From: a virus
Lineage: Duplodnaviria; Caudoviricetes
Virus record (IMG/VR): IMGVR_UViG_3300033076_001145
Coordinates: 1 to 64,000 of that record
Length of the DNA: 64,000 nt
Reading direction: 5' to 3' (one strand)
A program made the position numbers and the translations under genes. This document shows positions 19,438-38,693 of this stretch, piece after piece. The notes beneath the pieces are model-generated. The model ran no database searches, was not told where the DNA came from, and worked only from the letters and a program-made list of their open reading frames with translations. How positions within the stretch are numbered: the first letter of the stretch is position 1; every line of letters begins with the position of its first letter.

Positions 19438-20652
19438 ATGAAAGAAAAAATTAAAGTTTTAGTCGTACCTTCAGACCGTACAGGTGTTGGTAAATTTAGG
19501 TCAGTCGACCCTCACATTTTCTTACAAAATCTATACCCTGATGAATTTCATGTTGATATTGTTTATGATATTGACTTTAATGATATTAATTTTTGGAAAC
19601 AATATCCTATAGTTCATTTTCATAGAAGTATTGGACAGGATATGGATAAGTCTGTAGATGTAATCAATTATTTAAACTCACAAGGAATAATCACAATTTG
19701 TGATATTGATGATTATTGGTTACCTGGTAAAGAACATCCTCTACACCAATTAATTATTCAGAATAAAATTCATGAAAAAATTATTGCAAACATTAAAGCT
19801 GCGAAATATGTAACAACAACTACAACACTTTACGCAGATGAGATTAAGAAATACAATCCAAATGTTTTCATTTTCCCAAACGCAATTGACCCAAATGAAT
19901 CTCAATTCAAAGAACCGACACCTGAGTCTGACCGATTAAGAATTGGTTGGTTAGGTGGTTCGTCTCACTTACATGATTTAATGTTGTTAGATGGGATGGT
20001 CGCAAAATTAAACGACAGAAAAAATAAGTTGCAATTTGTATTATGTGGGTTTGATACTCGAGGTAGTATTACCGAAATCAATCAACAAACAGGGGAACAA
20101 AAACAACGTCCAATCAAACCCCATGAAAGTGTATGGTATGACTATGAGAAAATCTTCACAAACAACTACTCAATAATTGATAATGATTATAAGGACTTTT
20201 TACATAAGTTTGAAAACGCTCCATATGAGAACGAAATGGATAAAAACTATTTAAGAGTTTGGACAAAACCTGTTACGTCATACGCAAAAAACTACTCAAA
20301 GTTTGACGTATCAATTGCACCAATTAAACACCACACATTTAATAAAGTTAAATCTCAATTAAAAGTTATTGAGGCAGGTTTTTATAAGAAAGCATTAATT
20401 GCTTCAAACTATGGACCATACACCATTGATTTGACTCATTGTTTGAAAAATGGTAACTTTGTTGATGGTAATGCTTTATTGGTTGATGAGCAAAGAAATC
20501 ATTCCGATTGGGCAAAATACATTAAAAAATTATCAGACAACCCGAACATGGTAAAAGACATGGGAGAGAGATTATATGAACACGTATCTAAATTATATGA
20601 TTTGCGTGTTGTAACAAAAAACAGAGCAGAATTTTATAAATCAATTTTATGA
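19438..20652 (+). CDS. GT4-family glycosyltransferase
   Basis: DIDDYW, IGWLGGSSHLHDL, FNKVKSQLKVIEAG. Confidence 0.85.
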   Translation: MKEKIKVLVVPSDRTGVGKFRSVDPHIFLQNLYPDEFHVDIVYDIDFNDINFWKQYPIVHFHRSIGQDMDKSVDVINYLNSQGIITICDIDDYWLPGKEHPLHQLIIQNKIHEKIIANIKAAKYVTTTTTLYADEIKKYNPNVFIFPNAIDPNESQFKEPTPESDRLRIGWLGGSSHLHDLMLLDGMVAKLNDRKNKLQFVLCGFDTRGSITEINQQTGEQKQRPIKPHESVWYDYEKIFTNNYSIIDNDYKDFLHKFENAPYENEMDKNYLRVWTKPVTSYAKNYSKFDVSIAPIKHHTFNKVKSQLKVIEAGFYKKALIASNYGPYTIDLTHCLKNGNFVDGNALLVDEQRNHSDWAKYIKKLSDNPNMVKDMGERLYEHVSKLYDLRVVTKNRAEFYKSIL

Positions 20653-21347
20653 TAAAAACACCATTAAATAAAATATTGTTTGTCGATATTGAAACTGTCG
20701 GTATTTCTAGTAACTATGAAAGTTTCCAAAGAGATTATCCGTCATTGTCATATCAGTTTGAAAACTATTTAGATTGGTTTCAAAAAAGATTCCCTGAGGA
20801 TGCCGATAAAACAAAGGAAGAAATCTTCGTCAATAGAGCGGCTCTTGTTCCTGAGTTTTGTAAAATAGTTTGTGTAACAGTTGGATTTGTTGACCCAAAA
20901 GGTGAAACCAAAATGCAAACATTTTTTAACTCAGATGAAGAACAATTACTTAAAGACGTTAATACCCTATTTCAAAGGGTTGATAAACTTGGGTTTGTTC
21001 TTTGCGGTCACAATATTAAGAATTTTGATATTCCTGTTCTTGCAAAAAGAATGTTAGTTAATGGTGTTAGACCATCATTAATCTTACCATCATATGATAC
21101 AAAACCTTGGGAAGTTAAAGCCATTGATACAAAAGAAATTTGGCAATACGGACAATTTGGAGCCATCTGTTCATTGGAATTAATGTGTATTTCATTGGGT
21201 ATTGAAAGTTCCAAAAACATGGAGGTAACAGGAAATAAAGTTCATGACTCATTTTGGTTTGAAAACAAATACCAAGAAATACAAGACTATTGTGAAAAAG
21301 ATGTTGAAGTATTAATAAACGTTGTAACAAAAATTATGTCAATATGA
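20649..21347 (+). CDS. PolB-type 3'-5' exonuclease (DEDDy)
   Basis: DIET, GHNIKNFD, YCEKDV. Confidence 0.9.
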   Translation: MIKTPLNKILFVDIETVGISSNYESFQRDYPSLSYQFENYLDWFQKRFPEDADKTKEEIFVNRAALVPEFCKIVCVTVGFVDPKGETKMQTFFNSDEEQLLKDVNTLFQRVDKLGFVLCGHNIKNFDIPVLAKRMLVNGVRPSLILPSYDTKPWEVKAIDTKEIWQYGQFGAICSLELMCISLGIESSKNMEVTGNKVHDSFWFENKYQEIQDYCEKDVEVLINVVTKIMSI

Positions 21348-21928
21348 AAGATGAATTTATGTCAGCAATAGATAAGGTAATCCCTAATCTATCTAAAGAC
21401 CCTAACTACGGGGACATGTATAACAAAATTAAAGAAAATCTAGGGTTAGATTTAGAGCAGTTAGAAAGAGATATGGAAAACGCTTCAAATGACAAAGTTA
21501 TTTTGCGTTATACATCATCAACGGGAAAAAACTTAGTTTATAATTATGATTCTGATAGTGGATTTGATTTGTATTCATCAGAAGAAGTAGTTATTCCTTC
21601 ATTAGGAAGAGCTCTTGTCCCAACAGGAGTTAATTTTCAAATACCAAAAGATTTTGAAATTCAAATCAGACCAAAAAGTGGTTTGGCTCTAAATTACGGA
21701 CTGACTGTGTTAAATACTCCCGGTACAATTGACGAGGGATATACAGGAGAAGTTAAAGTAATTGTTTTTAACACAAGTTCAGAACCAGTAACAATAACCA
21801 AAGGAATGAAAATTGCCCAAGCAGTTGTTGCAAGATGTATCACAGGTAGATGGGTAATATTAGAAAAGTCCGAAAAAATAAAAAGTGGAGACAGAGGGGA
21901 TAATGGGTTTGGAAGTACTGGGATATGA
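21344..21928 (+). CDS. dut: Trimeric dUTPase with N-terminal extension
   Basis: SGFDL, RPKSG, GTIDEGYTGE, IAQ, RGDNGFGSTG. Confidence 0.95.
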   Translation: MKDEFMSAIDKVIPNLSKDPNYGDMYNKIKENLGLDLEQLERDMENASNDKVILRYTSSTGKNLVYNYDSDSGFDLYSSEEVVIPSLGRALVPTGVNFQIPKDFEIQIRPKSGLALNYGLTVLNTPGTIDEGYTGEVKVIVFNTSSEPVTITKGMKIAQAVVARCITGRWVILEKSEKIKSGDRGDNGFGSTGI

Positions 21929-36825: not shown

Positions 36826-37887
36826 ATGAGTGAAACAATACAAAAGTTAGAATCGTCGATTGAGAACTTAAAAAACAAGTCGGCAAGAATTTACTTCTTT
36901 GTAATGGATACAAAGGGAAATGCTAAAGCGTCAATGAAATACATTTATGATATGGCATTAACATTAAAAAATAATGGTTATAATTCAATTATTTTACATG
37001 AAAAATCAGACTACTTTGGGGTGAGTTCTTGGCTTGGTGAAGAATATATGACAAAATTACCTCATCAATATGTAGAGGGTCAAAATTTAGCCATTTCACC
37101 TGAGGATACAATTATTGTTCCTGAAATTTTTGGTTACGTAATGTCTCAGATTTCTAATTTACCTTGTGCTAAAGTAGTCTTATGTCAATCTTATGATTAT
37201 ATTTTTGAAACTTTGGAGCCAGGTCAAACATGGTCTCAGTTAGGATTTACTAAATGTATCACAACTAGTGAGAAACTAAAATCTCACATTTCTCAAATTA
37301 TGAGAAATGTTTCGATTGATATTATTGAGCCAGTTATTTCTGAAGAGTTTAAACCCTCTAAATTCCCACCAAAACCATCAGTTGCGGTTCATTCTAGAGA
37401 ACAAAGAGATACTGTTAATTTCATTAAACAATTCTACGTTAAGTATCCACAATATCGTTGGGTTTCTTTTAGGGATATGAGAGGTATGTCAATTAACCAA
37501 TTTGCAACTGCACTTAAAGAATCAATGGTTTCAATATGGATGGACAAACAAAGTAGTTTTGGCACGTTTCCATTAGAATCAATGTCTTGCGGAACACCTG
37601 TCGTTGGTATTGCTCCATCTATCCAGCCCGAATGGATGACAGAAGATAACGGAATATGGACACTAGAGCAAACAAGATTAGTAGATATGACTGCGGAATT
37701 TATTCAGAATTGGTTAGAAGATAATATTTCAGAAAAACTGTATGAAAAATCTATTGAGACTTCAAGTAAATTTCAAAACATGGATTTTTTTAAAAAAAGT
37801 GTGACATCAAATTTTGAAAGATATCAGGATATTAGAAGTTCAAATTTTCAAATGGAATTAAATAAAATTAAACAAGAAACTATATAA
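36826..37887 (+). CDS. GT4-like glycosyltransferase
   Basis: IIVPEIF, SFGTFPLESMSCGTPVVG. Confidence 0.8.
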   Translation: MSETIQKLESSIENLKNKSARIYFFVMDTKGNAKASMKYIYDMALTLKNNGYNSIILHEKSDYFGVSSWLGEEYMTKLPHQYVEGQNLAISPEDTIIVPEIFGYVMSQISNLPCAKVVLCQSYDYIFETLEPGQTWSQLGFTKCITTSEKLKSHISQIMRNVSIDIIEPVISEEFKPSKFPPKPSVAVHSREQRDTVNFIKQFYVKYPQYRWVSFRDMRGMSINQFATALKESMVSIWMDKQSSFGTFPLESMSCGTPVVGIAPSIQPEWMTEDNGIWTLEQTRLVDMTAEFIQNWLEDNISEKLYEKSIETSSKFQNMDFFKKSVTSNFERYQDIRSSNFQMELNKIKQETI

Positions 37888-37889
37888 TC

Positions 37890-38693
37890 ATGGAAAATAA
37901 ATTAGACATTTCGGTAATTTTACCTATTAAGAATAATAAAGAAAAAGATTTTACTGAATTTTTTACTAAATCAATTGAGTCTTTAAAATCTCAAGAAATA
38001 CAAGCAAGTGAATTAGTAATTGTCCATACAGGTGACGAAACTTTGGTTAGTTATTTAGAGTCTTTTGACTTTGGAGATTTAAATACTCAAATATTTAAAT
38101 ACGAAAATGAACCAAATTTTGGTAGTCAGGTAAATTTTGGTATTGAAAAATCATCATCAAAATGGGTAAGTATTTTAGAATTTGATGACGAATATTCTAA
38201 AATTTGGTTTAAGAATGTTAAAAAATATTCTGAAGTTTATTCTGATGTCGATGCGTTCTTACCTATCGTAGTTGATGTTGATGATAAACTGGTATTTGCA
38301 GGATTTACCAATGAAGCAACATTCGCAACTAATTTTTCTCAGGAATCAGGTATTTTAACCAATGATACATTACATCAATATCAAAATTTTCAAATCTCAG
38401 GAATGGTAATTAAAAAGTCATCTATTGAAGATTTTGGAGGGTTTAAACCATCAATGAAATTAACATTTGGATATGAGTTTTTATTAAGAATGACATATAA
38501 TTCGGTTAAAATTATGACCATTCCAAAATTAGGATACAAACACATCAATTTAAGACAAGATTCTTTATTTTGGGAATATAAAAACGGAACTCAAAAACTA
38601 ACAGATTCTGAGGTAAAGTTTTGGGTATCTACGGCTAAAAAAGAATACTTTTTTACATCTGATAGGGACATAAAATATACTGAAAATGTTTAA
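37890..38693 (+). CDS. GT2-like glycosyltransferase
   Basis: ISVILP, VNFG, ILEFDDEY, FGGF. Confidence 0.8.
   Translation: MENKLDISVILPIKNNKEKDFTEFFTKSIESLKSQEIQASELVIVHTGDETLVSYLESFDFGDLNTQIFKYENEPNFGSQVNFGIEKSSSKWVSILEFDDEYSKIWFKNVKKYSEVYSDVDAFLPIVVDVDDKLVFAGFTNEATFATNFSQESGILTNDTLHQYQNFQISGMVIKKSSIEDFGGFKPSMKLTFGYEFLLRMTYNSVKIMTIPKLGYKHINLRQDSLFWEYKNGTQKLTDSEVKFWVSTAKKEYFFTSDRDIKYTENV

Follow-up and report, generated by a model that had tools for sequence, protein, structure and literature searches.

A hypervariable cassette of soluble glycosyltransferase genes in a freshwater jumbo phage: a candidate locus for glycosylation of phage proteins

Introduction

In the current study, we describe a cluster of glycan-related genes, here called island 2, at positions 19438-38693 of the first 64 kb of IMGVR_UViG_3300033076_001145, a 208,634-bp IMG/VR record with a G+C content of 32% and a CheckV completeness of 71%; "the window" hereafter denotes this whole 64-kb stretch. 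A further cluster (island 1) lies to its left on the opposite strand. The genes for the major capsid protein, portal, and terminase are located at 48.8-59.6 kb of the window, and the closest cultured capsids, those of Microcystis phage Mel-JY01, Flavobacterium phage vB_FspM_immuto, and Rhodothermus phage RM378 (distant T4-like phages), are 36-42% identical. Judging from its sequence, the phage is a T4-like, virulent, and as yet uncultured freshwater jumbo phage. A megablast search of the island against GenBank phages gave no match. The present clade may correspond to the moraphages (PMC12619734), a group of freshwater jumbo phages that infect Bacteroidota and share four core glycosyltransferase (GT) families; moraphages are, however, set apart from T4-like phages in that paper, whereas the capsid here is T4-like.

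Comparisons were made within a set of five genomes (G000 to G004) and within IMG/VR loci related to the island. G000 is this record (208 kb); because it is incomplete, three CheckV-complete relatives were also examined, namely G001 (293,850 bp), G002 (321,283 bp, with terminal repeats), and G003 (268,739 bp). Locus counts refer to two sets, 80 left-anchored and 80 right-anchored loci (160 clade loci).

Gene content of the glycan island

Island 2 holds 26 open reading frames (ORFs), all on the plus strand, with ends that overlap or nearly abut. Family and structure searches place 20 of these genes in glycan metabolism: 12 are GT-like, one is a firm and two are probable methyltransferases, and the others encode a PIG-L deacetylase, a GNAT, an aminotransferase, a GDP-mannose 4,6-dehydratase (GMD), and a 4-epimerase. 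The remaining six comprise an exonuclease, a dUTPase, PhoH, and three genes of unassigned function (31985, 35957, and 36552; genes are designated by their start positions). A first-pass annotation of this DNA had proposed a tightly packed island of about 20 glycan genes, and the searches bear this out, including its 12 GT-like genes, PIG-L, GNAT, and nucleotide-sugar enzymes; of the three methyltransferases that it counted, one (FkbM) is firm and two are probable, the evidence for 26961 being weak. The extent of the island stands overall, except that it includes three non-glycan genes, those for the exonuclease, dUTPase, and PhoH, which belong to DNA metabolism or the response to phosphate stress. 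The estimate that roughly 40% of the window is glycan-related agrees with the approximately 25.7 kb of enzyme genes that islands 1 and 2 contribute to the 64 kb.

The island opens with a GT4-like GT-B protein of 404 aa (19438..20652), all of whose Pfam matches are sub-threshold. Its AlphaFold2 model (pLDDT 83.5) matched GlgM in a Foldseek search of the PDB (1e-11), with PglA, BshA, and MshA among the other neighbors and T4 alpha-glucosyltransferase (AGT) at rank 22 (8.7e-9). Together with 23956 and 30918, it is one of three genes without a family hit that were assigned through a predicted structure or a language-model (Atlas) search. Two non-glycan genes follow, a PolB-exo-like 3'-5' exonuclease (20649-21347; PF10108, 4.5e-13) and a dUTPase (21344-21928; PF00692, 6.6e-27), and then a two-domain GT, 21925, composed of an N-terminal GT-A domain (21925..22599; PF13712, 5.8e-28) and a C-terminal GT2 domain (22600..23313; PF00535, 1.5e-32). 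In the PDB, the C-terminal domain is most like the polymerizing two-domain enzymes chondroitin polymerase K4CP (1.8e-32) and heparosan synthase, and GalT1 of Fap1 (5hea, 2e-17), an enzyme of a serine-rich repeat protein (SRRP) system.

The next five genes, all GT-like, form module B (23297..26960): 23297 (PHROG 14945, 7e-15), 23956 (GT8/Nucleotid_trans-like, of a phage "hexosyltransferase" family found with Atlas), 24603 (PF13524, 3e-13), 25475 (a weak, GT32-like call; Caps_synth, 19.8 bits), and 26235 (PF00535, 1e-7). Module C (26961..33386) contributes ten genes, beginning with a weakly supported methyltransferase-like gene (26961), a PIG-L deacetylase above the Pfam cut-off (27499), the firm FkbM methyltransferase (28079), and a GT32 (28696; PF04488, 1e-10). 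It continues with a Methyltransf_24-like gene (29601; Atlas TM 0.83 and a motif), a weakly called GT-B-like gene (30071; RXYLT1_C, E 0.07), and a compact GT9-like GT-B of 217 aa that has no Pfam model and a predicted structure of high quality (30918-31571; pLDDT 96.9). A GNAT (31579), the unassigned 31985, and a perosamine-synthase-like, DegT-type aminotransferase (32295) complete the module, both enzymes scoring above the Pfam cut-offs. PDB sequence searches with 19438, 29601, and 26961 gave no significant match. Module D (33383..35264) consists of the GMD (33383; PF16363, 4.5e-118) and an SDR resembling UDP-hexose 4-epimerases (34344; GalE 4zrm, 5e-54; WbgU/WbpP), both of which also score above the Pfam cut-offs. 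We considered 34344 as a GDP-fucose synthase and rejected this assignment, as the protein is GalE/WbgU/WbpP-like instead.

To the right lie the non-glycan PhoH gene (35242; PF02562, 5e-63) and two proteins of 204 aa (35957) and 90 aa (36552), the three occupying 35242..36824. The island closes with a GT pair at 36826..38693, a GT-B of family GT1 (36826; PF00534, 1.3e-5, slightly below the cut-off) and a GT2 (37890; PF00535, 4.3e-8).

A conserved frame around a swappable cassette

Comparison with related loci divides the island into a frame that is kept across the clade and a cassette that is not. The frame, found on more than 200 related IMG/VR contigs, comprises on the left the GT-B 19438, the exonuclease, the dUTPase, and the N-terminal domain of 21925, and on the right PhoH, 35957, 36552, GT1, and GT2. 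The genes at 16765-21928 occur in nearly all left-anchored loci (exonuclease and dUTPase in 79/80), and the right-anchored loci retain PhoH (72/80), 35957 (77/80), 36552 (80/80), GT1 (80/80), and GT2 (79/80). Gene 19438 has 208 IMG/VR relatives at 64-94% identity and GT1 36826 has 117, the relatives of the frame GT pair being 54-84% identical. Thus, 19438, the N-terminal domain of 21925, and the GT1 and GT2 genes at 36.8-38.7 kb belong to the conserved frame of the clade and lie outside the variable island.

Between the two halves of the frame, gene content is replaced wholesale. The cassette measures about 2-15 kb across the clade and 12.6 kb here; the distance from GT-B to GT1 is 17.4 kb here and 7.6-20.1 kb among relatives, and that from dUTPase to PhoH is 13.9 kb here and as short as 3.4 kb elsewhere. 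DNA collinearity with five relatives breaks at 22,550-22,595 of the window, which is the junction of the two catalytic domains of 21925. The PF13712 N-terminal domain is present in 78/80 loci (median identity 54%), the GT2 C-terminal domain adjoins it in only three (L002, L072, and L076), and in 55 loci a GT4-type GT-B domain is fused to the N-terminal domain in place of GT2. We read this junction as a recombination breakpoint inside the gene (at about 22,595), at which domains of different folds are swapped at the cassette edge. Since collinearity on the left ends at this domain junction, with the N-terminal domain kept and the C-terminal domain replaced, the cassette spans approximately 22.6-35.2 kb, close to the variable core of 23.3-35.3 kb between conserved flanks that had been predicted for a synteny comparison.

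The closest relative, L002, is collinear with the window over 16.0-26.7 kb and again from the GMD gene onward, and it skips positions 26673-33383. Because this stretch is missing, module C (about 26.7-33.4 kb, ten genes) is an insertion or deletion, while module B is common to both loci at about 80% DNA identity. Five genes of module C (26961-29601) have no homologues in the 160 clade loci, and the gene pair 23297-23956 recurs in other phage lineages. Two further IMG/VR loci (3300020474_001491 and 3300027779_002112) have no frame genes within their 8-kb flanks, yet they carry a partly syntenic cassette with 10-12 of the same families, in partly shuffled order (PIG-L 52% and GT32 56% identical). 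On gene content, these two loci suggest that the glycan toolkit circulates among aquatic phages.

The arrangement of variable GT and nucleotide-sugar genes between conserved flanks resembles that of an O-antigen or capsule locus. The architecture itself, a conserved frame around a hypervariable, soluble-only cassette with a domain-swap edge, is solid, and a literature search found no earlier description of such a frame and soluble cassette with a domain-swap edge.

Conservation extends beyond the island on the right, as 38693, 39458, and large proteins out to 45.1 kb are also kept in 72-80/80 right-anchored loci. Three of these large proteins (659, 528, and 502 aa; 39825-45119) have no Pfam or PHROG hit and are kept in 76-78/80 loci; a single strong hydrophobic helix is seen in the 659-aa protein (residues 521-539), and up to three occur in its homologues. 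A pattern scan had left 39825 without relatives; this was a false negative, and tblastn recovered the gene in 78/80 right-anchored loci.

Diversity and viral character of the cassette families

The 658 cassette ORFs of the 80 left-anchored loci fall into 162 protein clusters, the commonest being GMD/SDR (41 loci), GT11, GT2, GT10, and UDP-Glc/GDP-Man dehydrogenase. In a Pfam tally of 145 cluster representatives, GT2, Methyltransf_24, FkbM, epimerases, and CmcI-type rhamnosyl O-methyltransferases are prominent, as are hexapeptide acyltransferases, TylF, DegT, cytidylyltransferases, GT47, GT92, and RXYLT1. No export family is found among the 25 commonest of the 122 Pfam families of the cassettes. 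This repertoire implies a predicted clade chemistry rich in fucose or other 6-deoxyhexoses and in amino sugars, with heavy methylation.

The cassette families that we tested look viral rather than host-derived by their relatives. The Atlas neighbors of 23956 fall in clusters that are 91-99% viral, and those of 29601 in mixed clusters that are 43-100% viral. For GT32 28696, no Bacteroidota relative (the presumed host phylum) was found among 185,579 species genomes, and its relatives are present on phage contigs and on two contigs of giant-virus metagenome-assembled genomes (MAGs). Neither 28696 nor GT1 36826 matched any GenBank phage record.

A link to giant viruses comes from 30918, which matches giant-virus proteins far better than any PDB entry. 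Its best structural match is PBCV-1 Q89398 (E 1.3e-16, TM 0.82, 27% identity), an uncharacterized protein, and TM values of 0.76-0.86 relate the family to proteins of PBCV-1, HaV01, Bodo saltans virus (BsV), and mimivirus-like viruses, one of them a GNAT fusion. The family, with at least 129 metagenome homologues and 214 IMG/VR loci, may belong to the A064R-D2/A071R rhamnosyltransferase family of PBCV-1. The giant-virus likeness proposed at first pass is thus sustained at the level of protein families, by these structural matches and by the GT32 relatives on the two giant-virus MAG contigs.

Absence of membrane, export, and integration genes

A hydropathy scan of the 26 island proteins found neither membrane segments nor signal-peptide-like N-termini; the highest 19-residue hydropathy across these proteins is 1.63 and comes from a Rossmann strand. 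The same scan found no protein with more than three hydrophobic segments in the 208-kb record and none with more than two among the cassette ORFs of the left-anchored loci (n=658). Among 1890 ORFs in the right-anchored loci, the maximum is three hydrophobic segments, in every case in homologues of 39825, which lies outside the island. Whole-genome scans of G001 and G002 revealed no polytopic protein of exporter size, four or more hydrophobic segments occurring there only in proteins of 116-239 aa or in antisense frames. In G000, G001, and G002, some stop-to-stop frames contain 4-8 hydrophobic segments; these were considered as membrane proteins and rejected, as they run antisense to Thr/Pro- or Gly-rich genes. 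For example, G002 carries three tandem genes of about 800 aa on the minus strand (267768-275156) that are 26-32% glycine and possibly encode collagen-like fibers, and their antisense frames resemble polytopic membrane proteins.

Profile searches of G000-G004 gave the same picture. Nothing above cut-off was found for Wzx (PF01943), Wzy_C/ligase (PF04932), or the ABC-2 permease (PF01061), with positive controls, and no initiator of the WecA/MraY type (Glycos_transf_4, PF00953) or the WbaP type (Bac_transf, PF02397), the controls being positive in 9-12 of 14 genomes. GtrA (PF04138) likewise gave nothing above cut-off in the five genomes, with one 18-bit match containing an internal stop in G004. 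These results uphold the first-pass statements that the island has no Wzx, Wzy, ABC transporter, polyprenyl-phosphate initiator, or GtrA gene and no multi-spanning membrane protein, and they extend the former to three complete relatives and the latter to the whole record, G001, and G002. As the three complete relatives have neither a flippase nor a polymerase, the ~29% of this genome that the record lacks is unlikely to encode one. Finally, no tyrosine integrase was found in the 208-kb record or in the three complete relatives; this, together with the T4-like capsid, makes stable serotype conversion of a lysogen unlikely.

Predicted sugar pathway

The nucleotide-sugar genes of the cassette point to a GDP-linked amino sugar. 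The GMD scores 395 bits against TIGR01472 (cut-off 415). The PDB matches of aminotransferase 32295 ranked 2-4 are GDP-perosamine synthases (about 3e-36), and its nearest NCBIfam model is the GDP-sugar LegC family, at a sub-threshold score (197 vs 420). With the adjacent GNAT, these two enzymes suggest a GDP-(N-acetyl)perosamine-type sugar. In the pathway that we infer, GMD would convert GDP-mannose to GDP-4-keto-6-deoxymannose, the aminotransferase would turn this intermediate into a perosamine-type GDP-4-amino sugar, and the GNAT would probably N-acetylate it, while the 4-epimerase (34344) would interconvert UDP-hexoses.

Mucin-like proteins as candidate acceptors

Island 1 (3..16718, minus strand, divergently oriented) carries GT60, Glf, GT10, PLOD-GT, methyltransferase, and HtrL-like genes and is bracketed by Thr/Pro-rich mucin-like proteins (3-2795 and 12524-14815, minus strand), in addition to a 636-aa protein. 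The two mucin-like proteins flanking the island have no signal peptide. Mucin-like ORFs of up to 1789 aa occupy the same place in about 50/80 related loci, and such ORFs occur in every complete genome examined, with four in G001 and about ten in G002. The GT60 gene, of the polypeptide-GlcNAc-transferase type (PF11397), is present in 4/5 genomes and adjoins a mucin gene in G000 and G002. The arrangement associated with mucin-type O-glycosylation, PF11397 next to a Thr/Pro repeat, is therefore found, but in island 1 and not in island 2.

Only 47 bp (16719-16764) separate the mucin/island-1 block from the divergent island-2 block. This gap contains a TATAAATA motif at 16745-16752 on the minus strand, at a distance of 27 nt upstream from the gene for the 636-aa protein. 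The T4 late-promoter motif TATAAATA has 11 matches in the window against 14.5 expected, and as it is not enriched it is uninformative on timing.

Proposed function and alternative explanations

We propose that island 2 is a cytoplasmic, lipid-carrier-independent glycan factory that acts on phage proteins and is organized like a serotype locus, a reading to which we assign a probability of roughly 55%. The frame (GT-B 19438, the N-terminal domain of 21925, GT1 36826, and GT2 37890) would probably supply the invariant steps and the cassette between its halves would set the variable outer glycan structure: about nine cassette GT domains would add sugars one by one, PIG-L would take off an N-acetyl group, and one to three methyltransferases would cap sugars. 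Phage proteins, synthesized in the cytoplasm in which the GTs would act, are the most likely acceptors. Foremost among the candidates are the giant mucin-like Thr/Pro proteins, whose genes lie 5 kb away and at other places in related genomes, and fibers associated with the virion would thus receive a sugar coat that differs from strain to strain. A phage protein is our best guess for the acceptor, favored by the mucin-like proteins, the adjacency of GT60, the viral character of the cassette families, the giant-virus matches of 30918, and the precedent of giant viruses. The proposal also draws on the lack of membrane segments in the island proteins, on the absence of export, initiator, and integrase genes, and on the hypervariability of the cassette, and mycobacteriophages offer a further precedent. 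A more specific version, for which we see slightly less than an even chance, is a glyco-serotype locus of a widespread freshwater jumbo-phage clade, in which whole sets of genes for soluble GTs, sugar pathways, and methyltransferases are exchanged at a fixed slot, even down to the second catalytic domain of a fused GT, and methylated 6-deoxy- and amino-sugar glycans are built on mucin-like fibers without a lipid carrier, as a bacteriophage counterpart of Megavirinae fibril glycosylation. Such a coat might act as a shield, or it might lure the surface proteins with which Bacteroidota hosts capture glycans.

Several observations weigh against a phage-protein acceptor. Nothing links island 2 directly to the mucin-like proteins, themselves only putative components of the virion. 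Island 2 is transcribed opposite to the mucin genes, alongside DNA-metabolism genes and PhoH. G003 lacks GT60 and keeps the frame and a mucin-like ORF (L056:1-1740), so that another initiating enzyme would have to operate there if the mucin reading is right. Lastly, the GTs of O-antigen and capsule pathways are also typically soluble, and the host could supply the membrane steps.

This last point leads to the alternative that the phage remodels the host envelope, its GTs and sugar pathways acting at the cytoplasmic face on undecaprenyl-linked O-antigen, capsule, or O-glycosylation intermediates that the initiating transferase, flippase, and polymerase or ligase of the host would complete, with superinfection exclusion or a smaller loss of progeny on cell debris as the benefit. 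The lack of membrane proteins does not discriminate between the two readings, since soluble or peripheral GTs are the rule in the synthesis of O-antigen and capsular polysaccharide. Bacterial O-antigen loci likewise have a hypervariable cassette between conserved flanks, with GMD, perosamine-type, and 4-epimerase genes as classic members, and the GT-rich hypervariable islands of aquatic T4-like phages, including pelagimyophages and cyanomyophages, are usually read as host O-chain modification (PMC7029224). Nevertheless, we regard envelope remodeling as less likely, though a serious rival: the three complete genomes encode no initiating phosphoglycosyltransferase, flippase, polymerase, or ligase and no integrase, the cassette families tested are virus-dominated (GT32 28696 being without a Bacteroidota relative), and a protein acceptor agrees better with families such as GT60, GT10, GT11, GT47, GT92, and PLOD-GT and with the presence of very large Thr/Pro proteins in the cytoplasm. 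It is less probable still that targets are mixed, with frame GTs and cassette serving different acceptors (capsid, tail, or DNA as opposed to mucin-like fibers, and in part the host). The contrast between a frame that is 54-94% identical across the clade and a cassette that turns over by presence and absence would fit such a division, as would the retention of the frame without GT60 in G003, whereas the clustering of the genes and the fusion of a frame domain to a cassette domain in 21925 argue for one pathway and one acceptor.

Hypermodification of DNA, in which some or all of the GTs would glycosylate modified phage bases against restriction, as do the T4 alpha- and beta-glucosyltransferases (AGT and BGT), appears very improbable. 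The idea draws on 19438, the most conserved GT: this GT-B has T4 AGT among its structural neighbors, adjoins the exonuclease and dUTPase genes, and is 28% identical to relatives in Phapecoctavirus, where four GT genes cluster close to replication genes. The top structural neighbors of 19438, however, are GT4 enzymes acting on small molecules or glycans, and the sole ThyA-family gene encodes a true thymidylate synthase (TIGR03284, 316 bits vs a cut-off of 108) and not a hydroxymethylase. AGT (PF11440) and Tet/JBP family searches gave no match, with the controls for both silent, and twelve GTs with 6-deoxy-aminosugar, deacetylase, and O-methyltransferase genes go far beyond any known DNA glycan. 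The frame GT-B beside the exonuclease and dUTPase genes might still, at low probability, act in this way.

Two side observations concern these genes. In the phapecoctavirus Escherichia phage Schickermooser (NC_048196.1), four adjacent annotated GT genes, one with a product 28% identical to the frame GT-B, lie beside the genes for the replicative helicase and PolA (103.7-106.8 kb). The thymidylate synthase of the present phage (G000:C1:124219-125376) has 385 aa, about 100 residues over the usual length, and its profile match falls in two to three stretches, suggesting that it carries an insertion.

Comparison with known glycosylation systems

In chloroviruses and Megavirinae, virion proteins are glycosylated by virus-encoded GTs that are soluble and expressed early, in combination with GMD, aminosugar pathways, and sugar methyltransferases, and the glycosylation genes form clade-specific clusters of 6-33 genes (PMC9614988, PMC10117803). 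Island 2 resembles the systems that build the glycans of PBCV-1 Vp54 and of Megavirinae fibrils in its mostly soluble, virus-encoded GTs, some of them multi-domain, its GMD and sugar O-methyltransferases, an aminosugar route made of an aminotransferase and an N-acetyltransferase, and a clustered, clade-specific gene content. It is also co-oriented with early-type genes, as the PBCV-1 GT genes are expressed early, and at least one protein family (30918) is common to both. Unlike in giant viruses, the host is a bacterium and has no endoplasmic reticulum or Golgi apparatus that would need to be bypassed, the glycans and their acceptors are predicted, and even close relatives differ in the cassette that they carry at one fixed hotspot. 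The candidate acceptor here is a mucin-like, O-linked Thr/Pro repeat, whereas PBCV-1 carries N-glycans on its capsid and Mimivirus uses GMC-oxidoreductase fibrils.

Among aquatic phages, the "LPS genes" islands (named for lipopolysaccharide) of cyanomyophages and pelagimyophages (PMC7029224, PMC3037559) are the nearest counterpart, being likewise non-syntenic islands of T4-like phages that are rich in GT and nucleotide-sugar genes and have no experimental target. Those islands lie among tail-fiber genes, whereas the present one occupies a defined frame adjoining genes of DNA metabolism, is accompanied by GT60 and giant mucin-like proteins, and had its absence of export genes checked in complete genomes. 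According to the account given in PMC12619734, mycobacteriophages glycosylate their capsid and tail-tube proteins (Freeman 2023, cited in PMC12619734), with cytoplasmic phage GTs acting on the phage's own structural proteins at Ser/Thr-rich tails, as we propose here for a candidate acceptor. In that account, they use one to four GTs encoded next to capsid or tail genes and the acceptor is proven; here there are more than 20 GT genes, with nucleotide-sugar pathways and methyltransferases of their own. The concept thus overlaps with known precedents in giant viruses and mycobacteriophages.

The bacterial SRRP and SD-repeat adhesins (GtfAB/GalT1 of Fap1; SdgA/SdgB) are similarly modified by several soluble GTs that act sequentially on long Ser/Thr-rich repeats before export. 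The C-terminal domain of 21925 is similar to Fap1 GalT1 and 36826 is weakly similar to SdgA (26 bits), although these matches reflect generic GT2 and GT-B similarity far under family cut-offs; neither an orthologue of GtfA/GtfB nor an accessory Sec system was identified here. Serotype-converting phages (GtrABC, Oac, phage Wzy) share with this phage only the use of phage genes to alter a glycan: theirs are membrane enzymes of temperate phages, whereas no GtrA, polytopic protein, or integrase is found here.

Implications

If a phage protein is the target, these would be the first bacterial viruses known with a glycosylation program on the scale of giant viruses, one that would combine over 20 GTs with rare-sugar pathways of its own and the methylation of sugars and would involve no membrane step. 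The fixed slot would provide a natural library of GTs and methyltransferases that are soluble and independent of a carrier (162 clusters from 80 loci), and the "LPS genes" of aquatic T4-like phages, which are annotated as host-surface modifiers, would need a second look. Even if the target is the host envelope, the frame and its intragenic domain-swap boundary would offer a tractable model of recombination-driven glycan diversity. Moreover, since families are shared with chloroviruses and mimivirus-like viruses, it may be asked whether genes have passed between phages and giant viruses that inhabit the same waters.

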